DNA of 64,000 nt from Cetorhinus maximus. Its lineage: Eukaryota. The translations under genes and the position numbers were made by a program. The notes under the pieces are model-generated. The model was not told the origin of the DNA. It saw only the letters and a program-made list of their open reading frames with translations, and made no database searches. The stretch is from assembly GCF_964194155.1 (NCBI RefSeq), contig NC_135880.1, positions 36,208,001-36,272,000 of the forward strand, given 5' to 3'. Of this stretch, positions 1,581-63,212 are shown one piece after another (position 1 is the first letter of the stretch; each line of letters starts with the position of its first letter).

Positions 1581-2420
1581 GGAGATGGTGGTGTAGTGAT
1601 AACATCACAGAACTAATAACCCAGAGAAAAACAGAATTACCTGGAAAAACTCAGCAGGTCTGGCAGCATCAGTGGAGAAGAAATCAGTTAACATTTCGAG
1701 CCTTCATGGCCCTTCGGCAGAACTGAAGCATAGTTAGGAGAGGGGTGAAATATAAGCTGGTTTAAGGTGGGGGGGGGTGGGGGCGGGGGGGGAAGAGAGA
1801 AGTTGAGGGTGTGGTGATTGTGGAGATAAGCAAGCAGTGATAGGAGCAGATAATCAAAAGATGTCACAGACAAAAGGATCAAAGAGGTGTTGAAGGTGGT
1901 GATATTTGTCTAAGAAAAGTGCTAATTAAGACTGGAAGACAGGACACTCAAAGTACAGCTCTAGTGGGGATGGGGTGGAAAAGACTAACAAGGTTTTAGT
2001 TTTAGATTTAAAAATAATGGAAATAGGTGGGGAAAGAAGAATCTATATAAATTGACAGAGACCCAGGCTAATGTCCTGGAGACATGGGTTCAAATCCCAC
2101 CATGGCAGCTGGTGGAATTTAAGTTCAATTTTTAAAAATCTGGAATTGAAAGCTATTCTCAGTGATGGTGACCATGAAACTATCATCAATTGTTGTAAAA
2201 ACCCATCTGGTTCACTAATGCCCTTTAGGGAAGGAAATCTGCCATCCTTACCTGGTCTGGCCTACATGTGAGTCCAGGCCCACAGTAATGTGGTTGACAC
2301 ATAACTGCCCTCTGAAATGGTGTGGCAAGCTCTTCAGTTCAAGGGCAATCAGGGATGGGCAACAAATGCTGGCCTTGCCAGCAATGCCCGCATCTCATGA
2401 AAGAATAAGGAAAAATAATA
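1581..2420 (+). mobile_element. tRNA-derived SINE with LINE-type 3' tail, interrupted by a Penelope fragment
   Basis: A-box-like TGGTGTAGTGA (~1586) and B-box GGTTCAAATCC (~2087). The tail AAGGGCAATCAGGGATGGGCAACAAATGCTGGCC is shared with a LINE 3' end in the window. A near-complete sister copy lies at 37187-37560. Confidence 0.8.
1628..2055 (-). mobile_element. Penelope-like element 3' fragment (pLTR with hammerhead motif at 1684-1726)
   Basis: Reverse complement is nearly identical to ~12875-13296. CAGAGA is duplicated at 1622-1627 and 2056-2061. Confidence 0.85.
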
Positions 2421-4890: not shown

Positions 4891-4895
4891 ATGGG
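4891..4895 (+). CDS. HOMER1: HOMER1 coding exon 1 (ATG GG, Met-Gly split)
   Basis: AAAAATGGG|GTGAGA: good Kozak context and donor. Phase 2 matches the single G opening exon 2, the same 5-nt coding exon arrangement as vertebrate Homer genes. Confidence 0.9.
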
Positions 4896-9689: not shown

Positions 9690-11570
9690 GTTTTAAGTAG
9701 CATGATAGATGAGGGGGAACCAGTGGATGTGGTGCATTTGGATTTGCAAACAGCCTTCTATAAGGTACCAGACAAGAGGTTTTTGCACCAAATTAGAGCT
9801 CATGCGATTTGGGGGAAATATATTGACATGGATAGAAAACAGAGTAGGAATAAATAGGCCATTTGGGTTGACAGACTAACTAGCGGAGTACCACAATGAT
9901 TAGTTCTTGGGTCTCAGCTATTTACTATCTATATCAAAGACTTGGAGAAGGAGGAGTAAAATGACATAAAAGCAAAATTCTGTAGATGCTGGACTGAAAT
10001 AAAAACAGAAAATGCTGTAAATACTCAGTAGATCAGGCAAATTAAGGGAGACCAAACACAGATTGGGTGACTGCTTTGCAGAAAACCTCCATCCAGCCCT
10101 CAGGCATGACTTTGGGCTTCCAGTCAGTTGTCATTTTAATTCCCCACTTGGTTTCACACTGACCTCTAGGTCCAATGAAGCTCAATGTAGACTTGATGTA
10201 CCTCAACGTCTGATTAGGCACATTTTTTTTTATTCATTCACGGGATGTGGGCTTCACTGGCTGGGTCAGCATTTATTGCCCATCCTTACTTGCCCTTGAG
10301 AAGATGGTGGTGAGCTGCCTCCTTGAACCGCTGCAGTCCATATGGCGTAGCTACACCCAGTGCCGTTAGGAAGGGAGTTCCGGGATTTTGACCCAGCCTC
10401 CTGGACTCAACATTTGAGTTCAACAAATTTCAGACCATAATCTCTGCCCCCACTTTGTTTCCTTTTTCTTTGTAGGTTTTGGTTTGCTTTTCCTTTGTTT
10501 TTGCATTTGAATGGCAACTGTTCATCATTCTGCCATTCACACATCCTCTGGGCATAACTTTTGTTTCTTTACTTGTCCAATTTAAACACTGTCATTTAAT
10601 CTCTCCTGTCTCCCACCCTATCATAGTCCTTTTGCTTTTGTTGTTGTTCCCACATTCTCCCCACCCCCATTTCACTTGCTTGAAACCCATGACACTTCTA
10701 AGCTTTCCCAGTTCTGATAAAAGGTCATTGACCTGCAACATTCATTCTGTTTCTCTCTCAACAGATGCTCCCTGACTTGCTGAGCGTGCCAGCATTTTCT
10801 GTTTTTTACTTGGATGAGGAGGCTGAGTGTAATATGTCCAAGTTTGCTGATACAACATTAGGTGGATAAAGTAAGCTGTGATGAGGCTGCAATGAGGCTT
10901 CAAAGAGATATAGACAGGTTTAGTGAGTGGGCAAGAACATTGCGGATGGAATATTATGTGGGGTGGTGTGATGTTTTCTGCTTTGGAAACACAATAGAAA
11001 AGCAGAATTCTTTTTAATGGCGAGAAACTGGGAAATATTGGTATTCTAAGAGACCTGGGTGCCTTTGTACATGAATCACAGAAAAGCAACATGCAGATAC
11101 GGCAAGCAATTAGGAAAGCAAATTGTGCATTCTAAGCCCTTTGTAATAAAGGCTAAAAGTGAAGAAGTCTTAATGGCAATTGTATATGGAGCCCTTCGTG
11201 AGTACATACCTGGAGTACTCTTTACACTTTTTATCTCCTTACCTAAAGAAGGATATGGTTACTTTGGAAGGGGTGCAAAAATGTTTATTAGACAGGTCCT
11301 GAATAAGGAGATTGCACTCTGAAGAGAGATTTAATAGACTTGGACTATATTCTCTGGAATTCAGAAGGATGAAGGTGATCTCATTGAAATAAACTTCTTA
11401 AAGGTCTTGATAAAAGAGATGTTGAAAGGATATTTCCCTCGCCTGGCAAGTCTGGAACTAGGGGGTCATAGGCTCAGAATGAGGGGCCAGCCATTTTGGA
11501 CTAAGATGAGGAGAAATTTTCTACTGCAGAAGTCTGTGGATACTCTGTTGTTTAACATGTTCAAGACAGG
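9690..11570 (+). mobile_element. CR1 LINE fragment split by a Penelope insertion
   Basis: GEPVDVVHLDLQTAFYKVP before the insertion. RT sequence resumes at 10808 (..KFADT..). Confidence 0.85.
9955..10807 (+). mobile_element. Penelope-like element: inverted 5' pLTR, GIY-YIG remnant, 3' pLTR with decayed hammerhead (~10710-10744); contains a nested LINE tail ~10222-10398
   Basis: ETKHRLGDCFAENLH..LPVSCHFNSP..SNEAQCRL resembles a PLE GIY-YIG endonuclease. Imperfect 15-bp TSD ACTTGGAGAAGGAGG (9940-9954) / ACTTGGATGAGGAGG (10808-10822). Confidence 0.8.
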
Positions 11571-12725
11571 AGGTTCCTTTCAGTCATTTCCTTCATTGCA
11601 CAGTGCACTGCAACCAACAGTAGGCTTCTTATAAGGGTGCAGTTATTTTCTTTATATCATTTGTATAGCAAATCATTATGATAAAACTTTTTTTAATCAA
11701 ATATTTAATTTAATACACTTAATGCAGTGCTAGATTGAACATCCCTAACTAAACATCCTTGTAATTGTAATCTAAATGCAACCTTAATCTTCATTTTTTT
11801 TCTTAAAACTGCTCTTTCCTTTTTATAATTCCTCACAGCCTTGCTATCTTTAACATAATCTTTATCTAGGACTACTTACTGTATTTTCTAATTTGTTTTA
11901 TTTTATTGTATAATGTGGGCAGAAAGTATATTTCTTGTCTCACATCTTTTTAATGTGTGCATCTGTCATTACTTAATTCAGAGGGCTTGGTTGGTGCCTG
12001 CGTTACTGTAGTGATACTACTGTGGGAATATGAGAAGAAGCTTAAACTTGAAAACTTATCAACATTGTAGCCACCTGAATTGCTGCCCTGCAGCTGAAAT
12101 TGCACCCACTCACTCTTGCAGTCGAGTCAATAAAATAAATATATTGTAGTGCTTTGGAATGCTGCAACACAGAATAGCTTGACTCCCTTCCTCTTCTCCA
12201 TCTTTTTATCCCCCCTATGGTTATTTACTTATTTCTATTTCAATATTTTTTTTGGCTTTGCAATTCATGGTGCAGTGGTCTATTTTACTACAACCTGCAT
12301 TTGGGTAGTTCCTTTAGCATAGTAAAAGTGTCGAAGCAGTTCGCAAGTGCTATTGTCAATGAGTGATTACGAACCACGGAATTGTTTGGATAGCTGTGAG
12401 GTGTTTTCAAGGGGTGTCTTAATAGAAGAGGCAGAGGGGTTTAAGGAGGAAACTCTAACCTATATGAGATCTCTGAAGGTGGGGTGGTGAAAAAGGCTTA
12501 TGGGACACTTGCCTTTATCAATCGAGGCATAGATTACAAAAGTAGGGAGGTTATGTTGGAGTTGTATTGAACCTTGGTGAGGTCACAGCTGGAGTACTGT
12601 GTGCAGTTCTGGTCGCCACATTATAGGAAGGATGTGATTGCACTGGAGGGGGTGCAGAGGAGATTCACCAAGATGTTGGCTGGGATGAAACATTTAAGTT
12701 ATGAAGAGAGGTTGGATAGACTTGG

Positions 12726-13296
12726 AAGCCCAACGCAAACTGGAGGAACAGCACCTCATCTTCTGACTAGGCACTTTACAGCCTTCCGGGCTGAATATTG
12801 AATTCAACAACTTTAGATCTTAAACTCCCCCTCCCCCCATCCCCACCCCGTCTCTCCCCCCTCCCTTTTTTTTCAATAATTTATATAGATTCTTCTTTTC
12901 TCACCTATTTCCATTATTTTTAAATCTAAAACTAAAACTTTGTTAGTCTTTCCACCCCACCCCCACTAGAGCTGTACCTTGAGTGTCCTGTCTTCCATTC
13001 TTAATTAGCACTTTTCTTAGACAATATCACCACCTTCAACACCTCTTTGATCCTTTTGTCTGTGACATCTTTTGATTATCTGCTCCTATCACTGCTTGCT
13101 TATCTCCACAATCACCACACCCTCCACTTCTCTCTCCCCCCCGCCCCCCCCACCTTAAACCAGCTTATATTTCACCTTTCTCCTAACTATGCTTCAGTTC
13201 TGCCGAAGGGTCGTGACGACTCGAAATGTTAACTGATTTCTTCTCCCCCGGTGCTGCCAGACCTGCTGAGTTTTTCCAGGTAATTCTGTTTTTGTT
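12726..13296 (+). mobile_element. Penelope-like element 3' fragment (GIY-YIG C-terminus, 3'UTR, hammerhead-bearing pLTR)
   Basis: EAQRKLEEQHLIF*LGTLQPSGLNIEFNNFRS* at ~12725-12823. Perfect 14-bp TSD TTGGATAGACTTGG at 12712-12725 and 13297-13310. Confidence 0.9.
13194..13236 (+). ncRNA. Minimal type I hammerhead ribozyme-like motif in Penelope pLTR
   Basis: TCAGTT-CTGCCGA-A-GGGTC(GTGAC)GACTC-GAAA-TGTT-AACTGA: 6-bp helix I, 5-6-bp helix II, near-palindromic helix III. Core is CUGCCGA (A6C variant). Activity untested. Confidence 0.7.
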
Positions 13297-13858
13297 TTGG
13301 ATAGACTTGGGTTGTTTTCGTTGGAGCAGAGAAGACTGAGGGGCGACCTGATCGAGGTGTACAAGATTATGAGGGGCATGGACAGGATGGATCGGGAGCA
13401 GCTGTTCCCCTTAGTTGAAGGGTCAGTCACAAGGGGACATAAGTTCAAGGTGAGGGGCAGGAGGTTTAGGGGGGATGTGAGGAAAAACTTTTTTACCCAG
13501 AGGGTGGTGATGGTCTGGAATGCGCTGCCTGGGAGGGTGTTGGAGGCAGGTTGCCTCACATCCTTTAAAAAGCACCTGGATGAGCACTTGGCACATTATA
13601 ATTTTCAAGGCTATGGGCCAAGTGCTGGTAAATGGGATTAGGTAGGTAGGTCAGGTTTTTCACGTGTCGGTGCAGACTCGATGGGCTGAAGGGCCTCTTC
13701 TGCACTGTGAGATTCTGTGATTCTGAAATTTTGAACATTTATCTGGATGAAAGCAGTTCATTGTTATCCCGATAAATGAATAACTTATCTGCCACATTTA
13801 ATTCACTTATTGGGCACTCGTGACTGGTTATATTTGTGGGCAATGTCAAACTACATCA

Positions 13859-23855: not shown

Positions 23856-26800
23856 TTTTTTATTCATTCCAGGGATGTGGGCTTCGCTGGCTGTGCCAGA
23901 ATTTATTGCCCATCCCTAATTGCCCTTGAGAAGGTGTTGGTGAGCTGCTGCCTTGAACCGCTGAAGTCCATGTGGTGTAGGTACACCCACAGTGCTGTTA
24001 GGAAGGGAGTTCCAGGATTTTGACCCAGTGACAGTGAAGGAACGGTGGAGATATATTTCCAAGTCAGGATGGTGAATTACTTGGAGGGGAACTTCCAGGT
24101 GGTGGTGTTCCCATTTATCTGCTGCCCTTGTCTTTCTAGGTGGTTGTGGGTTTGGAAGGTGCTGCCTAAGGAGCCTTGGTGAATTCCTGCAGTGCATTTT
24201 GTAGATGGTACACAATGCTGCCACTGTGCGTCGGTGGTGGAGGGAGTGAATGTTTGTGGATGTGGTGCCAATCAAGTGGGTTGCTTTGTCCTGGATGGTT
24301 TCCAGCTTCGAGTGTTGTTGGAACTGCACTCGTCCAGGCAACTGGAGAGTATTCCATCACACTCGTGACTTGGACAGGCTTTGGGGAATCAGGAGGTGAG
24401 TTACTCGCCACAGGATTCCTAACCTCTGACCTGCTCTTGTAGCCACAATATTTATATGGCTAGTCCAGTTCAGTTTCTGGTCAATGGTAACCCCAGGTTG
24501 TCAATAGTGGGGGATTCAGTGATGGTAATGCCATTGAATGACAAGGAGTGATGGCTAGATCCTCTCTTGAGGAGATGGTCATTGCCTGACACTTGTGTGG
24601 CGCGAATGTTACTTGCAACTTGTCAGCCCAAGCCTTGATATTGTCCAGGCCTTTCTGCATTTGGGCATGGACTGCTTCCGTATCTGAGGAGTTGCGAACG
24701 GTACTGAACATTGTGCAATCATCAGCAAATATCTCCACTTCTGACCTTATGATAGAAGGAAGGTCATTGATGAAGCAGCTGAAGATAGTTGGGCTAAGGA
24801 TATTACTCTGAGGAACTCCTGCAGTGATGTCCTGGAACTAAGCTGATTGACCTCCAAGAACCACAACCATCTTCCTTTGTGCTAGGTATGACTCCAACCA
24901 GTGAACAGTTTTCCCACTGAATCCCATTGACTCCAGTTTGGCTCCTTGATGCCAAATCAGTCAAATACTGCCTTGATGTCAAGGGCAGTCACTCTCACTC
25001 TTGCCTCTGGAGTTCAGCTCTTTTGTCCATGTTTGAACCAAGGCTGTAATATGGTCAGGAGCTGACTGGCCCTGTTGGGACACAAACTGGGTGTTAGTGA
25101 GCAGCTTATTGCTAAGCAAGTGCTGTTTGATAGCACTCTTGATGCACGCGAACTAGGAGCAGCAGTGGGTCACTCGACCCTTCAAGCCTGCTCCGCCATT
25201 TAATATGATTGTGACTGATCTGATTGTAATATCCAGCCTACCCCCGATAACTTTTCACCCCTTGTTAATCAAGAATCTATCTACCTCTGCTTTTAAAAAT
25301 ATTCACCCCTTGTTAATCAAGAATCTATCTACCTCTGCCTTTAAAAATATTCACCCCTTGTTAATCAAGAATCTATCTACCTCTGCCTTTAAAAATATTC
25401 ACCCCTTGTTAATCAAGAATCTATCTACCTCTGCCTTTAAAAATATTCAAAGATCCTGCTTCCATGGCCTTTTGAGGAATAAAGTTCCAAGGACTCATGA
25501 CCCCCCAGAGAAAAAAATTTCTCCTCATCATTGTCTTAAATGAGCAACCCCTTATTTTTAAACCATGATCCCTAGTTCTAGATTCTCCCATAAGAGGAAA
25601 CATCCTCTCCACATCTACTCTTAAGATCCCCAGGATCTTAAAGGTTTTGATCAAGTCACCTCTTACTCTTCTAAAATCCAGTGGATACTAACCCCTTCCA
25701 TCACTTTATGATGATTGAGACTTGACTGATGGGTAGTAATTGGCTGGATTGGATTTGTCCTGCTTTGTGTACGGGATGTACTTGGGCAATTTTCCACATA
25801 ACCGGGTAGCTGCCAGTGTTGTAGTTGTACTGGAGCAGCTTAGTTTGAGACCTGGCAAGTTCTGGAGCACAGGTCTTTGGTACTATTGCTGGAATATTGC
25901 CAGGGCCCATAGCCTTTGCAGAATCCAGTGCCTTCAGCCGTTTCTTGATACCACGTGGAGTGAATCTAATTGGCCGAGGATTGACATCTGTGATGCTGGG
26001 GACCTCCGGAGGAGGCCGAGATGGATCATCCACTCAGCACTTCTGGCTGAAGATTGTTGCAAATGCTTCAGCCTTAATTTATGCACTTAAATGACCCCAT
26101 TCTGAAATGGTCACATGTGGAGCCGCCTCCTCCAGCGAGTTGTTTAATTGTCCACCACCATTCACGACTGAATGTGGCAAGACTGCAGAGCTTGGGTCTG
26201 ATCCACTGGATGTGGAATCTCTTTTCTGTCTATCGCTTGCAGCTTATGCTGTTTGGCACGTAAGTAGTCCTGTGTTGTAGCTTCACCAGGTTTTCCCCTC
26301 ATTTTTAGGTATGCCTGGTGCTGCCCCTGGCATGCCCTCCTGCACTCTTCTTTGAACCAGGGTTGATCCCCTGGCTTGGTAGTATTGGTAGAGAGGGATA
26401 TACCGGCATGAGGTTACAAATTGTGGTTGAGTATAATGCTGCTGCCGATGGCCCACAGCACCTCATGGATGCCCAGCCTTCAGTTGCTAGATCTGTTCGA
26501 CGCAGGGTATCCTCCAAGTATATGGAGGGTATCCTCGAAGTGATATTCAACATGGAGGAGTACTGATTCATGAGCTGGGGGTGTGTGGTGCTGGTATGTA
26601 ATAATCAGCAGGAGGTTTCCTTGCCCATGTTTGACCTGATTCCATGAGACTTCATAGGGTCCAGAGTCAACGGGACAACTCCCTCCCTCCTGTATACCAC
26701 TGTGCCACCACCTCTACTGGGTCTGCCCTGCTGGTGGGACATGGTGATGGTAGTGTCTGTAAGGGTTGATTCAGCGAGTATGACTGTTAGGCTGTTGTTT

Positions 26801-32689: not shown

Positions 32690-33900
32690 AACTTTTACTG
32701 CACAAAGGACATGTATTTGCATCAATTCTCATTGTTTGAGGATTGCACTTTACTTCGTAAAATGGTAACTGCCGTTGGGGACAAAGTGATTGCAAAAATG
32801 CAGGGCCAATAGGAGATGGCATTCAATGGCAAAAATGCTGTATGCATCACCAACGCAAAGGATCCATCAACAGGTAGCTTTTTAAGTTGTTATATAATCA
32901 AATTCTCCAACAATTAGATATACAACCATACCTGGGGGTTCATCTTAAAAGCAATCCTAAATGGGGCTTCTGCATTCAGCAGAAAGCAGCTAAATCAAAC
33001 AGGGTCCTTGGAACTCTGACGAGGGACCTTTGGTATTGCAACAAATTAATCAGTTATAGCTTAACAAACAATTATTCGTCCAATCCTGGAGTATGCAAGT
33101 TGTGTGTGGGATCCCTATATGGCATAAGATTATAAATAAGATTGAAGCGACCCAAAGACTTTCTGCACGAATGAATATGGGAAATAGTGTCACATCCTTG
33201 ATCACGACAGCAAAGGAGAGGAATAAATAGACTGACCATGTTCTATAAAATATGGAATAAAATCAAAGTACTGGAAAAAAAAACTCGGGAGTTAGAAGGG
33301 GTGTGGTGTCTGGCAGCATCTGTGGAGAGAGAAACAGTTAACATTTCAAGTCCAATAGGACTTTTCGGAATATATTTCACCACATTTCTACTTGCCTTTA
33401 GCTCTGAAGACGAGTCATACAGACTCGAAACGTTAACTGCCTTTTTTTCCACAGATGCTGTCAGACCTGCTGAGTTTTTCCAGCATTTTTTGTTTTTGTT
33501 TCAGATTTCCAGCATCCGCAGTGTTTTGCCTTTATGACTCTTCGGAACTTTGGTTCCAAAAGACAGTCGTATTGTACTCAACATTAACTCCATGGATGCT
33601 GCCAGACCTGCTGAGTTTTCCAGCACTTTGCTTTGTTTTCCGATCTCCAGCATCTGTAGTCTTTTGCTTCTATAAAATATGGAATGGGCTGGTGGGGATT
33701 GACAAACAAGTATCTGCAAGCCTCCAGCAAAGACAAAACATGAGGTAGCCATCCACACAAACTACAGACCATTTGTCTCCAAGACAGTGTATCAACAATC
33801 TATCTTCTCAAGGACAATCCCACAATGGAACAAGCTGCCAAAGGAAATAGTCACAGCCCCATCACTTGAAATCTTCAAGACCCGTCTTAAGATTATTTCC
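32690..33900 (+). mobile_element. Old non-LTR retrotransposon RT C-terminus of a third family, split by a Penelope pLTR cluster
   Basis: PYLGVHLKSNPKW..KAAKSNRVLGTL, RLTMFYKIWN|GLVGID, YQQSIFSRTIPQWNKLPKEIVTAPSLEIFKTRL. Confidence 0.75.
33259..33667. mobile_element. Composite of inverted and tandem Penelope pLTRs
   Basis: Perfect 18-bp TSD TTCTATAAAATATGGAAT (33241-33258; 33668-33685). One minus pLTR is followed by two plus pLTRs. Hammerhead core CTGAAGA-C-GAGTC(ATACA)GACTC-GAAA-CGTT-AACT at 33404-33438. Confidence 0.85.
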
Positions 33901-34791: not shown

Positions 34792-34913
34792 ATAAAAACA
34801 AAAAGCTAAAAGCTACTGCGGATGCTGGAAATCCAAAACAAAAACAGAATTACCTGGAAAAACTCAGCAGGTCTGGCAGCATCGGCGGAGAAGAAATCAG
34901 TTAACGTTTTTTG
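34792..34913 (-). mobile_element. Solo Penelope pLTR insertion, truncated within the hammerhead
   Basis: Perfect 14-bp TSD ATTTGGATACATGT (34778-34791; 34914-34927); near-identical to the reverse complement of 43446-43568. Confidence 0.9.
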
Positions 34914-39944: not shown

Positions 39945-40101
39945 GGAGCAGCCCATCTTCAGCACGCGAGCCCATGTCTTCCAGATTGATCCTACCACAA
40001 AGAAGAACTGGGTTCCCACCAGCAAACATGCTGTGACTGTGTCCTACTTCTATGACAATACACGCAATGTATACAGGATAATCAGCCTTGATGGGTCAAA
40101 G
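39945..40101 (+). CDS. HOMER1: HOMER1 exon 2 (EVH1 domain N-half)
   Basis: cag|[53 protein letters not shown]|gtgagg, 157 nt. KHAVTV and IISLDGSK are Homer1-type residues. Confidence 0.98.
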
Positions 40102-42429: not shown

Positions 42430-44230
42430 ACCCCCTGGCCAGCAAGACTGTACAGACCCCCCATGGGATGTAAGAATATAAGAAGTGGGAGTAGGCTATC
42501 CAGCCTCTCAAGCTTTCTCTGCCATTCAGAAACTCACCAAGACTCCTTAGAACGCACCTTCTAAACCTATGAGCTCTGCCATCAAGGACAGCAGACACAT
42601 GGAAGCACCACCACCCATAAGTTCCCCTCCAAACCACTCACCATCCTGACTTGGAAATATATCGCCATTCCTTCACTGTCGCTGGGTCAAAATCCTGGAA
42701 CTGTCCCTAACAGCAGTGTGGATGTACCAACACCACGTGGACTGCAGCAGTTCAAGAAGGCAGCTCATCACTACCATCTTGAGAGCAACTGGAGGCAGTG
42801 GCATAGTGGTATTGTCACTGGACTAGTAATCCAGAAACCCAAGGTAATGCTCTGGATTCGAATCTCACCTAATGATGACCATGAAACCATTGTCACTATC
42901 TTTACCTGGTCTGGCCTAAATGTGACTCCAGACCCACAGCAATGTGCCCTCTGAACAAGGGCAGTTAGGGATGGTCAATAAATGCTGGCCTGGCCAGTGA
43001 CGCCCACATCCCATGAATTAATTTTTTTTTAAAAACCACGAGGAAGCATTCTCCCCACCGGGTCAGGGGGGTGGGGGGCGGGGGGGGGGGGGGGGGAGGG
43101 GTGCGGGTGGAAGTGCAGGATAGGCGCCCCCAATCAGGGGCGCGTGAAAGAGCACACTCGTCTCCCTGAGGCTAAGTGCTGCCTCAGGGAGATCGGCGCC
43201 AAATTTTAAAATGGTAAAGGTGCAAAAACAAAATTTCCCTGACATGTCCCCTCATGGGACATGTCCATCACTTTAAATCATACATTTATTAAATTTTCAA
43301 AAACCCTCATGAAACCTCATCCCGCCCGTGGATGAGGTTTAATGCTTTTTCTGAAGCCCACCAGGGCTCCTGGCCTGCCTACCAACCCTAAGGTTGGATG
43401 GGCAGGTCCATTAATGAGGTTCTGCTGAAGGGCCATGAGGGCTCGAAACGTTGACTGATTTCTTCTCCACCGATGCTGCCAGACTTGCTGAGTTTTTCCA
43501 GGTAATTCTGTTTTTATTTTGTTTTGGATTTCCAGCATCCGCAGTAGCTTTTAGTTTTTTGTTTTTAACATTAATGAGGCTAATGACTTTGTCAATGGCC
43601 TCAATAGGCCGTTGACAGGTCGGCGGGCGCACAGCTGATTTGGCCGCGCCCCCGCCAACTTGAAAATTGAAATGACGTGGGTGACGTCGGGAATTCTGCC
43701 CGACAACATCCCGCGTAATTTTACGCGTTGGTGAGTGGGCCCCGCCGCCTGCTCGCCAACATAAAGATCCTGCCCATGATCTTTTACCTCCACTTCCCCA
43801 CCATCACACCTTGCCTTTTGTATTCAAAAACACTCAGCATTGAATATGTTCACTGACCTAAGTATCCGCAGACCTTTTATGGTAGAGAATTCAAAAGGTC
43901 TGCAACTTTTTGAATAAGGAAATTTCTCCTCATCTCAGTCCTATTCTGAGACTGTGACCTGTCAGTTCTTGATTCCCCAGTCAGGGAAACATCTTCTGAG
44001 CCTGTACCCAGTCAAGCCTCTTAAGAATTTTATACACTCCAATGATAGCACCTCTTTCTCCTAAACTCTAAGGAATATTGTTTACTCAATCCCTCCTCAT
44101 TGGGCCATCTCTGCATCCCAGAGTCTAGTCTAACCTATGTTTCACTCCGTCTAAGGAAATATATCCTCCTTTTGGTAAGGAGATCAAAACAGTGCACACT
44201 ACTCCAGGTGTGATCTCACCAAGGCTCTAT
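42430..44230. mobile_element. Nested cluster: minus CR1 3' end, plus LINE/SINE 3' end (~42530-43030), minus Harbinger-type MITE (~43040-43775)
   Basis: The CR1 3'UTR starts ~42468 and resumes at ~43776. The MITE terminus reads GGGCAGGATCTTT on the minus strand from 43775 and aligns to 46790 onward. Confidence 0.75.
43420..43568 (+). mobile_element. Solo Penelope pLTR with hammerhead motif (43418-43456) inserted in a MITE
   Basis: 11-bp TSD CATTAATGAGG (43409-43419; 43569-43579). CTGCTGA-A-GGGCC(ATGAG)GGCTC-GAAA-CGTT-GACT. Confidence 0.88.
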
Positions 44231-48259: not shown

Positions 48260-48391
48260 GCAATAATCAACAGCACAATCACTCCAAACATGACATTCAC
48301 AAAAACATCTCAGAAGTTTGGACAGTGGCCGGATAGCCGTGCAAACACAGTCTACGGTTTAGGTTTTTCCTCGGAACATCATCTAACAAAA
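48260..48391 (+). CDS. HOMER1: HOMER1 exon 3 (EVH1 domain C-half)
   Basis: ccag|[44 protein letters not shown]|gtgagt, 132 nt. Confidence 0.98.
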
Positions 48392-50939: not shown

Positions 50940-51032
50940 TTTGCAGAAAAGTTCCAGGAATTTAAAGATGCAGCACGGATAGCAAAGGAAAAAATGCAGG
51001 AAAAAATGGAATTAACCAGTACGCCTTCACAG
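50940..51032 (+). CDS. HOMER1: HOMER1 exon 4
   Basis: atag|FAEKFQEFKDAARIAKEKMQEKMELTSTPSQ|gtaggc, 93 nt. Confidence 0.97.
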
Positions 51033-51351: not shown

Positions 51352-52220
51352 CCAGATCACAGGAAGATATAGACAGGATGGTCAAATGGGCAGATAAGTG
51401 GCAGATGGAATTTAACCCTGAAAAGTGTGAGGTGATACACTTTGGAAGGAGTAATTTGACAAGGAAGTATTCAATGAACGGCATGACACTAGGAAGTTCC
51501 TGAGTAACAAAGGGACCTTGGCGTGTGTGTCCATAGATCTCTGAAGGCGGAGGGATATGTTAGTGGGGTGGTGAAAAAGACATTTGGGACACTTGCCTTT
51601 ATCAATCGAGGCATAGATTACAAAAGTAGGGAGGTCATGTTGGAGTTGTATAGAACCTTGGTGAGGCCACAGCTGGAGTACTGTGTGCAGTTCTGGTTGC
51701 CACATTATAGGAAGGATGTGGTTGCACTGGAGGGGGTGCAGAGGAGATTCAGCAGGATGTTCCCTGGGATGAAACATTTAAGTTATGAAGAGAGGTTGGA
51801 TAGACTTGGGTTGTTTTCATTGGAGCAGAGAAGACTATGGGGCGACCTGATCGAGGTGTACAAGATTGAGGGGCATGGACAGGATGGATCAGGAGCAGCT
51901 GTTCCCCTTAGTTGAAGGGTCAGTCACAAGGGGACATAAGCTCATGGTGGGGGGCAGGAGGTTTAGGGAGGATGTGAGGAAAATCTTTTTTACCCAGAGG
52001 GTGGTGACAGTCTGGAATGCGCTGCCTGGGAGGGTGGTGGAGGCGGGTTGCCTCACATCCTTTTAAAAAGTACCTGGATGAGCACTTGGCATGTCATAAC
52101 ATTCAAGGCTATGGGCCAAGTCCTGGTAAGTGGGATTAGCTAGGTAGGTCAGGTGTTTCTCACATGTCAGTGCAGACTCGATGGGCTGAAGGGCCTCTTC
52201 TGCACTATGTGATTCTGTGA
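51352..52220 (+). mobile_element. Young CR1 LINE 3' portion
   Basis: QEDIDRMVKWADKWQMEFNPEKCEVIHFG..LYRTLVRPQLEYCVQFW..FFTQRVVTVWNALP; GATTCTGT tail. Confidence 0.95.
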
Positions 52221-52844
52221 TCCTGTCAATTTAAGAATGATTGATTATTTCATCATCTAGACCTGCAACCAGGTCAGGAAGCATCATTCTTGATTTTGTG
52301 AAGGTTTGGCGATGGGCATTTTTTACATATCAAATGCAGAAAATATTTTATGGATCGCTGCATAAGAAATTGTTTGAGATAGCTGAGGCCTATGGTGTAA
52401 AAGGGAGAGTGAAGATATAGGTAACAACGGCTGAAAGACAGTTGTGGCAAGAGGATTTTTTTCCGCCTGATCTGTGTTAACGTTGTAATTGGCTGCTGAT
52501 GGCAAACTCCAGATACCAATCCCTTGGGAAAATCATGGGCATTAAGCAGACTCGAAGAATAAGCAAATCCATTGCAAACATAGTGGAACATGGGAAAATG
52601 AGAGATGATGCTTTTGGGCAAAACAAGAATAGAGATATGCCTAACATGGGAAATGTCTCCAGGCAGGGAAGAATCAAAGGGATGGACATGCGTAAATTCA
52701 TTAACCCTTAAGTGGGTGGACAATTTATATTTTTAAAAAACATTGATAGATGAGATTTTGGTATTTATATTGTGAGAAATTGAATGTAGCAGGAAAGTGG
52801 TTGTGATGACACTATACAATTACTGATTATGCCACATTTGGAAT

Positions 52845-54416: not shown

Positions 54417-54559
54417 GAGTCTGCAGGAGGTGACCTGCAGTCACCTCTGACACCAGAGAGTATCAATGGGACAGATGATGAAAGGTCTATTCAGGATGTG
54501 GCACAAGATTCTGATGCACGAGCTGAAATTAACCAGAGTTCTCTACCTTTTACTCACAG
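54417..54559 (+). CDS. HOMER1: HOMER1 exon 5 (hinge with P-motif SPLTP)
   Basis: acag|ESAGGDLQSPLTPESINGTDDERSIQDVAQDSDARAEINQSSLPFTH-AG|gtaggc, 143 nt. SPLTP is the Homer1-specific P-motif. Confidence 0.97.
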
Positions 54560-56321
54560 GTAGGCATATGAAATGTGAAGTTTTTGTTAGTCCCGTGGTG
54601 ATTACTGTTTTATTCTGCTTCCACATTGGTGTTGCCTTTTAATTAAAATCGCCTACTGCTTTAAACTACACAATTTTTCTTTTGCTGGAGTTTTAAGTTT
54701 TATACTGGGCCTCCAGGACAATGTTTTAAATGAAGAAACCAGAGCAAAGATCTGTAATAGAGAGACCATTACCAAGGTTGAAATGATTTTTTTTAAACAA
54801 AAATCAGATTTTTTTTAAAAGAAAAATAACACATCAGAAAATAATGTTTTAAAGGTCTGATGATTGCAGGGGAAAGGGAGACTGAGGAACATAAGGAGTT
54901 TAAGTTGAGGAAGTACAGCATGTGAAGTCTTGATTTTAATCATGTCGGGTAATGTATTTAGAGAGGAATAAGAGGAAAGCTGAAAGAGAACTGACTCTAT
55001 CTGCCCAATATCATGAGAGAAGAGAGACAGTTATATGGTTGAGCTGCCTGTTTGGATGCTGAGATTTTCATTTGGCCTGTTCTAAAGTATGAAAAATTTT
55101 CAGAAGAGGCTTTTCAAATATGGGAGCAGTAAGTCTTAGATTGACCGAGAACTTTCAACTTCTTTATAAAGCTTGAGAAACGAGTACTAGGTGAGCAAAG
55201 CAATCTGGAGGCAATTTTAGTTATAGAAACGGTGTGACTTCTATTTGAGATTAGCAAGGATGGTGGAGTCGAGGATGTTTGTCAGAGGAGCTGGGTAGAG
55301 TCAGGGATAAGTTGGTAGTTGTGGTCTTTGAAATATGAAATATCTCCGCGCTTTCAATTTTGCTTCAGCCTGTGTAATGAGATCACAAACTTCTTGAATT
55401 ATCGAACCCTGGAAGTTTAAGAACCAGTAATTAGAACTTGTCTTTATGGTTGTCATAGCAACTGATCTATTTAAAGATGGCCCCTTACTGCCTTGAGTTA
55501 ACTTTTTTTTAACTTTCCACTATAGCTTATTAGTATAGATGGTCATATCCAACTTTGGGCAAAGCTCTTTTTTTCTTAGTTGATTGAAATAAAGCATCTA
55601 GTGTGGTCGATCAATGTGTCAGGAGGAAGCTCTTAATTTTGATTTCCAAATATCTGTCTTAATTAGTTCATATCGTACCCTAGACCACGTATATCGCATC
55701 TGTCGATGAAGTGTATGTTTGGCTCAGACAACCAATATCTGTTTAGCCAAGTATGTGGATTTGCTCAAATATTAGATATCCTCTACACTGGAAAAGCAGG
55801 GAATCATGAACCAGCTATTGCCACCAAACCAAAATATGCCTGGAAATGTTTTCGAATCCTAGAATGGTACAGCACAGGAGGAGGCTGTTTGGCCTATGTG
55901 TCCGTGTCAGTTTTCGAAAAAGCTACCCAATTATGCCACCTCTACTCTCTTCCATAGCCCAGCACTTTTGTTCCTTTTCAAGTACCTATCCAATTGCCTA
56001 TTGTAGAGTTTTTCTTTAATCTGTTTCCACTACCCTTTCAAAGGCAGTGCATTCCAGATCATAACATGCCTTTAAAATAAAATAGTCACATTTCTTCTAC
56101 TTCTTTCACCTTAAAATCTGTGCCCTCTAGCTATTGAACCTTTTGCCATTGGCAGCAGTTTCTCCTCCCTTTATCAAAACCCTTCAAGATTTTGAACTTG
56201 AAGGAGAATAAGCATAGATCTCCTAGTGTTAGTGAAGCCATTTTGCTTCCATGCAAAGGCCACTTTAAACAGCTAAAAGATATTGTAGCAAATATAAGAG
56301 CAGAGAAGCACAAAACCTACC

Positions 56322-56422
56322 TCTGAAGATGAATCATACGGACTTGAAACGTTGGCTCTGTTTCTCACTCCACAGATGCTGTCAAACCTGCTGAGTTTTT
56401 CTAGCATTTGCTGTTTTTATTT
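56322..56422 (+). mobile_element. Solo Penelope pLTR (decayed hammerhead) in intron 5
   Basis: 13-bp TSD CACAAAA(C/T)CTACC (56309-56321; 56423-56435). Begins TCTGAAGA-T-GAATC(ATACG)GACTT-GAAA-CGTT. Confidence 0.8.
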
Positions 56423-58517
56423 CACAAAATCTACCATTGGTTTTATATCCTTCTGTGCAATCTTAAAAACCCCTCACTGGAGCTTCAAACTTGGTGTTGT
56501 GTTGCCTCCATTATCTTATAGTGTGTGCTTGGAACTTATCTGAATGATTTGGCTCCACAAAGTAGTGGTGGACAGAGCGTGCCAATGCCATCGTGTTTGT
56601 GTGTATAACCCTGGACTAACCTTCAATATAACTTAAGGCTGTTGTCACCGATTGACTCTAACATCAATTTGGTGAAGGTTTACAAATAGGAAGTTAAACC
56701 ATGTCTTGTCAATGGTGGGTCATAATATTCTGATGCTGCCAAAACATATTCTGGTGGAGAAGTGCAATTTCTTTTCCTCATATATATCCTCTGAATTCAC
56801 ATTTCTCTCAATTAACATCACAGTTTTGGTGTCTGTGCCAAAATTGACTAAGGAAGTCCCCACTTGTTTCACGGTCATTCATTCGTTCAGTTCTAATTTT
56901 TTAAGACTCTTTTTTTGCTCCTTGACCCTTTTGGTTGTGCTACACTCCCCCAATTCTGAATGGGGCCACAGCATGTCAGAAATGTGCTTCGTAAATTGGA
57001 ATATATCCATGAGCAATGACGAAGGTAATCCTGTATATTTGTTCAAGCATTTGTACGTTGAAGTTGAAAAATGCAACAGATCTGCCTCCCCCATGGACTC
57101 TTGGAGAGCTGTTTTTGAGTCCGATTGGGACCTGTTTCTGCAGTCACACTGTCACTTTTTGAATAGTGAAGCATTGCTATGGATAAGGAGTAATTTAAGA
57201 ATTTAACTCCGTACATCACCAAAAATCTGAGTGCCTCCCTTCCCCCCCTTTGTCCCCTATATCCTTTGTAACATGCTGTAGAACTGACTAACAATATAGG
57301 AAGGTGGAGAAGATCCACAAATGCTCTTCACCAGGTAGTGAGCGGCTATAAAAATACCCAGGACAATTTTAGGAAACAAAGCATAAAAGGGTTACGGTGG
57401 AGGTGGTTGACTTCTTCTGCAGTTGACGTGTATGATCATAAAATAATTGAAAAGATTTTTTTTTAAAGTTTCACACTTGGAAATGGTATTATCAAACCAA
57501 TATTGTGTTCAAGTTTATTTAATAAAATGCGTCCAAAATCGTACTAGTTTTATTTTCAAGCCTATGTGGTGACTCCTAGTCAGGAAAAGTCCACACTCAT
57601 TATTCAATAATTGTGTAGCTTTTTTCTTGTAACTGACCTACTTAGTTCTAGATTTTATTTTAAATCAGCATTGAATTCAGGTCACAGATGGGCAGATTGC
57701 AGGAGTTGGTCTTTCTGACCTGACCCAATTGAAATGCTAATAACGATGGTGAATTTGCAAGCTCATCGTTATTGTGACAAGACGTTTATGCACCTCCTTT
57801 GTAATGTGCTGTAGAGCTGATAAATGATATAGAAAGATGCAGAAGATCCACAAATACTCTTCACTCTTTAGAATATCCATTACAACTTGCATTTAAATAG
57901 TCTCCTCAATACAGACACATTCCAAACACGTAAGAGGGAAAATAGACGACATGTAGAGTTAACCAAGAGCGGAGTTTTAAGGGTAACTTAAGCGATGTAA
58001 AAGGGTATAGGGAGGGATCTCCAGAAAGTAGAGGCTAAGCAACTGAAGGTACAGCCAGAAGGAAGGAATGCACAAGGCCAGAATGCGAAGAATGGAGAGT
58101 TTAGGTATAATGACTACTGTAGCCAGAATGCCCAGAAGCCAACATGTTCAAGAATGTCAGAAAGGCTCATAAAGGTGCCAGTCCAGCAGTACTTTGCAAA
58201 GGGTGAGTTTTTGTGAGGGGAGGATTTGAAGGGGAGAGCAGCGCAGAGGAAACAATTTACAATATTGGGTAGCATGGCAGCCAGGAAGGAACGTTGGGGT
58301 GTCAGCATGTGATGGTCCCTTCAGGAAAGATTATGGGATGGGGGTGGGGGGCGGTGATGGGGAAACTGGAAATAAGTGAACGTGTTCCAACATCAGATTT
58401 GCCATTTGCTACAGATATCTCAATGTAAAATGTAAATAGATTGAATTTTTTTTTAAGAAGCCAGTGACAAAATCTACACAATGCTTAATAGTAACAAATT
58501 GTCTTATTTTTATACAG

Positions 58518-58674
58518 TACTACAATAGGAAAGCATTGGGAGTCTGAATTGGCAACCTTAAAAACCAACAATGCTAAACTTACAGCAGCACTACTGGAGT
58601 CTACTGCCAATGTTAAACAGTGGAAACAGCAGCTCACTGCTTATCAGGACGAAGCAGAGCGACTACACAAACGC
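58518..58674 (+). CDS. HOMER1: HOMER1 exon 6 (coiled-coil start)
   Basis: acag|T TTIGKHWESELATLKTNNAKLTAALLESTANVKQWKQQLTAYQDEAERLHKR|gtatgt, 157 nt. Confidence 0.97.
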
Positions 58675-63101: not shown

Positions 63102-63212
63102 GTTTCTGAACTTGAATGTCTGAGTGGGCAGGCAAATGTGCTTAAGACACACAAAACTGAACTGAACAGGACAATAGAAGAACTAGAGGCACAGATGAAG
63201 GACAAAGAGGAG
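63102..63212 (+). CDS. HOMER1: HOMER1 exon 7 (coiled coil); gene continues beyond window
   Basis: tcag|VSELECLSGQANVLKTHKTELNRTIEELEAQMKDKEE|gtaagg, 111 nt. Confidence 0.96.

Follow-up and report, generated by a model that had tools for sequence, protein, structure and literature searches.

Hammerhead ribozyme motifs in and beside Homer1 of Cetorhinus maximus as 3' ends of truncated Penelope-like retroelements

The stretch of Cetorhinus maximus DNA analysed here, hereafter the window, is 64,000 nucleotides long (contig NC_135880.1, positions 36,208,001 to 36,272,000) and carries the first seven exons of Homer1 together with a number of retroelement pieces (Table 1). Exon 2 is closest to Homer1 in the PDB, with 103 bits against 90 for Homer2 and Homer3, and most of the named matches to this exon are Homer1. 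Eight exons of the skate Homer1 (P0020) were mapped on the + strand at 86-98% identity, from 39945 to about 87820. Read-through of exon 5 meets an immediate stop codon, as in the short isoforms of fish (175-179 amino acids), and a Homer1a-type isoform is plausible. PolyA-like signals were seen at 54642, 55588, 56076 and 57521, the last two flanking the broken hammerhead motif at 56323. A 48-nt unit is repeated in tandem in about 4-5 copies at 25201-25488, within the 3' end of a repeat.

Table 1. Features of Homer1 and of Penelope-like retroelements (PLEs) in the window; positions are those of the window.
Feature	Position	Strand	Remarks
PLE 3' fragment with A6C hammerhead at 1684-1726	1627..2053	-	upstream of Homer1 exon 1
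Homer1 exon 1, putative coding end (start codon and two bases, then GT donor)	4891..4895	+	GC-rich promoter-like region
Antisense PLE tail (9957-10034) beside inverted GIY-YIG piece (10048-10215)	9957..10215	.	
Old PLE end with G8A/A13C hammerhead	10710..10806	+	intron 1
LINE-like host repeat split by PLE insertion	12479..13725	+	uninterrupted paralogue at 51563-52225
Target-site duplication, up to 14 bp	12712..12725	+	repeat at 13297-13310; joint 12711>13297
5'-truncated Neptune-type PLE	12726..13302	+	577 nt; 93% identical to full-length copy L124
Minimal type I hammerhead, core CUGCCGA (A6C)	13194..13236	+	Homer1 intron 1
Inverted partial copy of the 33400 insertion	33308..33366	-	
PLE end, older A6 subfamily	33371..33535	+	intron 1; motif at 33398-33440
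Tail-only piece of the 33400 compound insertion, no hammerhead	33588..33672	+	
PLE tail fragment truncated inside the hammerhead, 13-bp target duplication	34792..34909	-	antisense
Homer1 exon 2 (EVH1/WH1 domain)	39945..40101	+	
Short PLE end starting at helix I, CUGCUGA (A6C), with tail and 11-bp target duplication	43418..43569	+	intron 2
Homer1 exon 3	48260..48391	+	
Homer1 exon 4	50940..51032	+	
Homer1 exon 5	54417..54559	+	approximate ends
Old short PLE end, canonical core, G10.1.U11.1	56318..56424	+	intron 5
Homer1 exon 6	58517..58674	+	approximate ends
Homer1 exon 7	63102..63212	+	
Homer1 exons 8 and 9	about +68300, +87635-87820	+	beyond the window

Six hammerhead motifs are present, at the coordinates and on the strands given for them in the preliminary description of this DNA: 1684 on the minus strand and 10710, 13194, 33400, 43418 and 56323 on the plus strand. 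Five of them are intronic and sense in Homer1, as had been claimed; intron 1 holds three, and introns 2 and 5 hold one each. The 1684 copy is antisense and lies upstream of exon 1, and is therefore absent from the Homer1 pre-mRNA. The six motifs are far beyond chance. A motif profile gave 89 matches in sampled stretches and the Homer1 region and none on reversed sequences, while exact patterns gave 9,930, 12,125 and 50,201 matches genome-wide (3.99 Gb in 5,087 contigs) and zero when reversed.

The type I topology, an extra nucleotide after A9 and the absence of a helix III loop are common to all six copies. The canonical core, CUGANGA...GAAA...UH, is found in two (33400 and 56323) and not in the named copy 13194. 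A core of the form CUGNNGA, as first described, holds for most copies, but 10710 reads CUGAUAA...GCAA, and the formula conceals a C at position 6 in 1684, 13194 and 43418. The 13194 motif has a 6-bp helix I, an extra A, a 5-bp stem II (GGGTC/GACTC) and GAAA-UGUU; its palindrome has decayed to U.G, and the predicted cut is after 13230. The 1684 motif is of the same A6C type, with stem II GGGCC/GGCTC, and 43418 has A6C in the core CUGCUGA, an intact AACGTT and a helix I of 4 bp including two G.U pairs. In 33400 the core is CUGAAGA and stem II and palindrome are intact, helix I having a C.A mismatch at its second pair; this is the only sense copy with both a canonical core and an intact stem II. 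In 56323 a G.U replaces G10.1-C11.1 in stem II (GAATC/GACTT), which also has an internal mismatch, and helix I is broken. The 10710 copy, with G8A and A13C, a broken helix I and a lost palindrome, is predicted to be dead.

The AACGTT palindrome ascribed to the whole family is whole in three copies only, reading AATGTT in 1684 and 13194 and AACATT in 10710, and a full helix I of 6 bp is confined to 1684 and 13194. The pair G10.1-C11.1 is G-C in four of the six copies and in 33 of 46 aligned rows. The palindromic positions 15.2/16.2 are CG in 21 of 30 sampled copies with a near-intact core and in three of the six window copies, and most of the non-CG palindromes look like CpG decay. The four stem II pairs quoted at the outset (GGGCC/GGCTC, GGGTC/GACTC, GAGTC/GACTC and AGGTC/GACCT) are all right, and the cut sites predicted at 13230/1, 33434/5 and 43452/3 fall directly after H17. 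The predicted cleavage after GUU agrees with Figure S3 of PMC4209133, in which this triplet is common. A search with hammerhead models had also been proposed; an Rfam scan of the window gave seven weak unrelated matches and no hammerhead at E<=10, motifs without loops not being matched by its models.

Each of the six motifs is the 3' pseudo-LTR (pLTR) end of a separate, 5'-truncated PLE of Neptune type, the clade being assigned provisionally from the CX4CxxC linker motif and not from an RT tree. A linker of the form CX2-5CxxC between RT and endonuclease is part of the definition of EN+ PLEs (PMC8557442). The translations of longer copies contain RT, the C-X4-C-X2-C linker and GIY-YIG. An open frame of 822 amino acids in one of them (L111) matched RVT_1 (E=7.6e-7) and GIY-YIG (E=4.5e-4) with Pfam scores slightly below the curated cut-offs, 29.5 vs 29.6 for RT and 20.9 vs 22.6 for GIY-YIG. 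In the full-length copy L124, a partial tandem, each pLTR has one motif (5249 and 8548), the two lying 3,299 nt apart. The motifs had been proposed to be the minimal type I hammerheads of PLE pLTRs, with covariation in stem II, and this was borne out by the tandem, by the PLE coding sequence upstream of the motifs and by the covariation described below. In the 33400 family, the upstream DNA runs into PLE protein, with 60-80% identity in the longer matches.

Among the closest 30 of 1,210 candidate loci (40 were scored), the 3' part is common and the 5' ends are scattered, and a tail of about 40 nt is present in some and absent in others. Inverted partners are common (L033, L036, L080, L084). 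Variable 5' ends, a common 3' end, an optional tail and inverted partners are all described as PLE traits (PMC8557442, PMC11167929). Separate target duplications surround four insertions in the window, those of 33400, 34792 and 43418 each having its own. In the insertion carrying 13194, the ORF is reduced to its final 32 codons, from the GIY-YIG part and with one premature stop; the 3' UTR/pLTR and the hammerhead follow, and the 40-nt tail is absent. It splits a LINE-like repeat, which we take to be of CR1/L2 type by resemblance. Empty-site joints (12711>13297) were considered as a sign of polymorphism and rejected, since other LINE copies can yield them. A retrozyme or tandem reading of the motifs is ruled out by the dispersed copies and their separate target duplications. 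A pair of copies on one strand of contig C1 (L079), 2.56 kb from each other and considered as a tandem, turned out to be unrelated short inserts.

Several further features of the element were observed. The long ORF of L124 appears to start about 200 nt past the motif. Immediately 3' of the hammerhead (13244-13286 and 33445-33490 in the window, and in L124), older subfamilies have an acceptor-like pyrimidine tract and CAG followed by ATG; in younger subfamilies that AG is lost and a donor-like CAG-GTAATT stands 29 nt past the ATG. A 5' intron of the PLE may have shifted position. Inspection by eye gave no acceptor with an in-frame join, and the splice reading of these signals was rejected. In three short copies (43419, 56318-56322 and 10710) the first base lies only a few nucleotides from the 5' arm of helix I, and the template may tend to have its 5' end there. 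A natural 69-nt tandem duplication (L083:2826-2965; G000:C1:8366838-8366937) holds two adjacent intact C6C7 motifs, preceded by a third, inverted one. An identical canonical motif with A6 and a GUC triplet was found at L081:4437, L082:4441 and L085:4581; it occurs in seven unplaced scaffolds, besides a variant on C196, and in the three scaffolds read it adjoins a 32/64-nt satellite and so is part of a larger repeated unit. Beside PLE fragments on the minus strand at L084:6417-8168 lies a 584-aa open RT frame of a LINE, which suggests a recently active LINE family.

The abundance of the family was estimated with a profile from 46 non-redundant seeds, which matched 67 times in 520 kb of sequence (52 stretches of 10 kb, placed arbitrarily), 22 times in the 194-kb Homer1 region and never in reversed sequence. 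Extrapolation gives about 5x10^5 PLE ends genome-wide. The motif segment is retained in 45 of the 67 sampled matches; two are fully intact and canonical and nine are intact but for position 6, and from these 11 about 8x10^4 copies of either kind are extrapolated for the genome. The window holds 12 PLE ends where 8.2 are expected (P=0.13), so that its density is at background, without enrichment. The strand ratio in Homer1 is seven sense to four antisense (P=0.55). Copies with a full motif are five sense to none antisense (P=0.06, post hoc), the sole figure that leans toward the cutting of Homer1 RNA in cis. In about 39 kb that cover Homer1 introns 6-8 (+56430 to +95760, G000:C2) no PLE end was found, about five being expected. 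Nearly every large shark gene should contain such PLE copies.

The covariation of stem II was examined in 46 distinct copies: the six of the window, 10 picked to represent subfamilies, and 30 that keep nine or more of the 10 core letters and come from the sample or from the flank of Homer1. Stem II is 93% paired and shows two-sided changes in four of its five pairs. The 6-bp helix I is 66% paired, its inner four pairs alone holding. The covariation score of 0.225, which counts copies and not events (related copies imply few events), was reached by none of 500 shuffles, and slid controls gave 0.02-0.09. The number of pairs with two-sided changes, taken alone, was equalled by 93 of 500 shuffles and is not above chance. 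Stem II is shown to covary between subfamilies. In the C6C7 subfamily, exact genome-wide counts for the fourth pair of stem II were 1,824 U-A, 5,926 C-G, 311 U.G and 67 C.A, and the excess U.G is often found in both arms of one insertion. Since neutral decay predicts about equal numbers of U.G and C.A, the excess of the former suggests that the master element went through a U.G wobble intermediate.

Position 6 of the core stands out. In matched patterns genome-wide, which are biased toward young copies, A6 counts 12,125 and U6 or C6 50,201, with zero in reversed controls; for the named (13194) subfamily the position-6 pattern counts are 9,930 vs 19. In the unbiased sample of 30, the same position is A in 18, U in eight, C in three and G in one. 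A tree of the flanks only, comprising the 84 of 147 copies with at least 200 nt of upstream homology, rooted at the midpoint, with bootstrap not fully settled and C6C7 tips partly picked for closeness to the query, forms a ladder A6 -> U6 -> C6U7 -> C6C7. The change from U-A to C-G in stem II falls within the C6C7 clade. Nearest-neighbour identity of unselected copies rises in the same order, from 0.86 (AU) over 0.92 (AA), 0.95 (UU) and 0.96 (CU) to 0.99 (CC), with n=8, 10, 9, 2 and 3. By tree and by identity the U6 and C6 copies are the younger subfamilies, and by the matched patterns the more numerous. The other core positions (C3, U4, G5, G8, A9, G12-A15 and U16), the palindrome and helix I stay unchanged across variant copies numbering in the tens of thousands. 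Descriptors that require CUGANGA would miss about four-fifths of the well-preserved copies here. Position 6 is thinly covered in the runs of other organisms; one loose-end consensus reads CUGUUGA, as a hint only.

A hammerhead of this kind requires two motifs for its active form, with the arms of helix I swapped and the 4-bp palindrome paired. The preliminary description held that the copies transcribed within Homer1 introns could in principle pair in cis and cut the nascent RNA. Cutting after such long-range pairing might tune splicing or the short Homer1a-type isoform. Such cutting is very improbable: of the five sense copies none is both intact and accessible, density and overall strand ratio are those of the background, and the copies come from subfamilies of differing age. 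It is favoured by the absence of full antisense motifs from the gene and by the cross-compatible helix I and helix III arms of 13194, 33400 and 43418. In a nearest-neighbour energy model without tertiary contacts, positive even for intact controls, thus of relative use only and no more than mildly discriminating, the active dimer lay 7.2 to 21.5 kcal/mol above the free monomers (+7.2 to +21.5) in ten window pairs and +3.9, +5.7 and +9.0 kcal/mol above them in three intact control homodimers. The best window pair, 13194 with 43418 (+7.2 kcal/mol), is within the control range, so energy alone does not exclude pairing; both of its cores carry A6C, and the two motifs are 30 kb apart with exon 2 between them. 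Motif partners are 2.5-46 kb apart in all. Against cutting stand the distances of the plausible partners (10-30 kb, two of three pairs spanning exon 2) and the effective concentration, 2-6x10^-7 M at 10-23 kb vs 10^-3 M at 70 nt by a crude random-coil estimate.

Accessibility was modelled for 33400. The 181-nt region over this motif folds at -75.8 kcal/mol (z=-7.9), and in the predicted fold G16.2, U16.1, U17 and the 3' arm are paired with a probability near 1. The inverted fragment at 33308..33366 is predicted to pair in the sense RNA with GAAACGUUAACU and the 3' flank of the 33400 motif, which would hide the cut site. A Homer1a-like isoform would end in intron 5 (PMC3332115), which holds the 56323 copy, but this copy is downstream of three polyA-like signals and has the most broken stems of all. 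Intronic ribozymes can alter mRNA output, as for CPEB3 (PMC10274809), whereas splicing persists when a slow hammerhead cuts the intron (PMC2995048, citing Dye 2006). Published PLE motifs are reported as inactive when monomeric and weak even as adjacent dimers (PMC4209133), and one of nine Xenopus dimers cleaved (bioRxiv 10.64898/2026.07.22.740005). As regulators of Homer1 the motifs are most likely without importance.

It is also improbable, if somewhat less so, that solo copies are nicked now and then in trans by abundant PLE RNA or by PLE protein, in many introns and with little effect per gene. The number of copies that are intact, or intact but for position 6, would provide for this, as would the motif region found in four runs taken by guess as RNA. 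The 22 public runs covered all consist of contigs, however; those with the motif region might derive from DNA, and transcript ends are not to be seen in them. In Anolis, cleavage of the motif needs the protein of the element, which would allow nicking in trans, yet no RNA-seq reads are reported to start or end at the site (PMC11167929). A depletion of sense copies in Homer1, for which the power is low, was not seen. Two of the runs guessed to be RNA (X12, record 9, and X15, record 17) gave single motif contigs, covering 13195-13280, with depths of 6,269 and 1,184. This depth might reflect abundant motif-bearing RNA, which contigs alone cannot show.

The preferred reading, with a probability of about 0.87, is that the motifs are minimal type I hammerheads in the 3' pLTR of an abundant Neptune-type lineage, carried by separate 5'-truncated insertions that are likely inert passengers in the Homer1 introns. 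Selection on the motif would have acted in the master elements, where the partial-tandem transcript would join two hammerheads via the ACGU palindrome and the protein of the element would probably assist trimming to unit-length RNA. Solo copies, with no nearby partner after insertion, would then decay. In the younger subfamilies A6 would have given way to U and then to C, with stem II repaired throughout.

On this reading, and from the substitution pattern, the fold is likely still under selection in the young subfamilies and cleavage is likely slow or conditional. The stronger statement, that the youngest amplifying Penelope lineage of this shark runs on a core changing from A6 to U to C through several successive subfamilies, in more than 50,000 copies, while repairing stem II, and that its motif is a natural ribozyme kept by selection, attenuated or conditional in its action and reliant on Mn2+ or on the protein of the element, is put forward tentatively. 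Held with equal reserve is the alternative that the motif of the young subfamilies is no longer a ribozyme and that stem II is kept for protein binding, as a promoter or for the start of reverse transcription. The loss of A6 in the younger, more numerous subfamilies would fit this, as would the near inactivity of A6C at low Mg2+, 0.004 per min at 1 mM Mg2+ vs 0.31 in Mn2+ (PMC7151607). Hammerhead mutants leave PLE insertion in vitro unaffected in Anolis (PMC11167929). The Naiad PLEs do well although they lack canonical motifs (PMC8557442). The fixation of the remaining core, palindrome and helix I argues the other way, being a better fit to retained catalysis than to a generic hairpin. This alternative agrees with the preferred reading in taking the Homer1 copies as inert and differs from it only on the master element. 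What PLE hammerheads do is described as an open question in PMC8557442. This genome provides natural variants of the core in a dated order, at a position where change cripples the Mg2+ cleavage of other hammerheads. If the ribozyme is indeed selected and attenuated, the family would be a ready test of whether PLE hammerheads must cut at all.

PLE hammerhead variants are said to cleave as dimers, reportedly in the 2017 work of Lunse et al. Among the titles listed, none concerned variant-core hammerheads of PLEs or vertebrates, and Lunse et al. 2017 may list position-6 variants; the literature search likewise found none on PLE hammerheads of sharks. The motif class itself is already known as the minimal PLE hammerhead, min-HHR (Cervera and De la Pena 2014, PMC4209133). 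The window copies share with it type I topology, a short helix I, the extra nucleotide after A9, G10.1-C11.1, the lack of a helix III loop, the palindromic 15.2/16.2, the frequent GUU, the prevalence of solo truncated copies and covarying families. All 44 rows examined in Figure S3 of that paper have A6, which its descriptor required, and cartilaginous fish are absent from these rows, whereas U6 and C6 outnumber A6 four to one here by matched patterns. Coelacanth and Xenopus have 4,000-9,000 copies (PMC4209133), as compared with tens of thousands here. That PLE hammerheads occur in a shark too, and in very many copies, is to be expected, and 13194 is best filed as a position-6 variant that would work like, or descend from, the min-HHR.

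The architecture agrees with that of Neptune EN+ PLEs as described in PMC8557442, in the RT, the CX2-5CxxC linker and C-terminal GIY-YIG, the partial tandem pLTRs, the inverted 5'-truncated partner, the 30-40-nt tail and the hammerhead near the 3' end, and no architectural difference from that description was found. Poseidon PAc of Anolis (Frangieh 2024, PMC11167929) likewise carries its hammerhead in the pLTR, ahead of two 3' end points with a tail between them, but belongs to another clade, and its ORF starts at stem II as against an apparent start about 200 nt downstream here. The hammerhead of phage Bcep176 shares the C at core position 6 (PMC3088659, PMC7151607). It is a single phage motif with low activity in Mg2+ (kobs <0.1 per min, PMC3088659) and a preference for Mn2+, and A6C put into another hammerhead gave a 10,000-fold gap between Mn and Mg (PMC7151607). 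Here, unlike in the phage, C6 and also U6 are fixed in amplifying subfamilies of a vertebrate retroelement, and the ribozyme activity is a predicted one. The domesticated intronic hammerheads of amniotes (RECK etc., PMC6155905) and CPEB3 also lie in sense within an intron of a vertebrate gene. They are single, conserved across species and self-sufficient (PMC6155905), the hammerheads with a stable helix III for cleavage as monomers, whereas the window copies are decayed repeats at background density that need a partner and have no helix III loop. The non-LTR retrozymes, reported in one chondrichthyan genome (bioRxiv 10.64898/2026.07.22.740005), are PLE-derived and of type I as well. They form tandem arrays with a motif in each unit, whereas the window copies are dispersed PLE ends, 2.5-23 kb from neighbour to neighbour and with different flanks.
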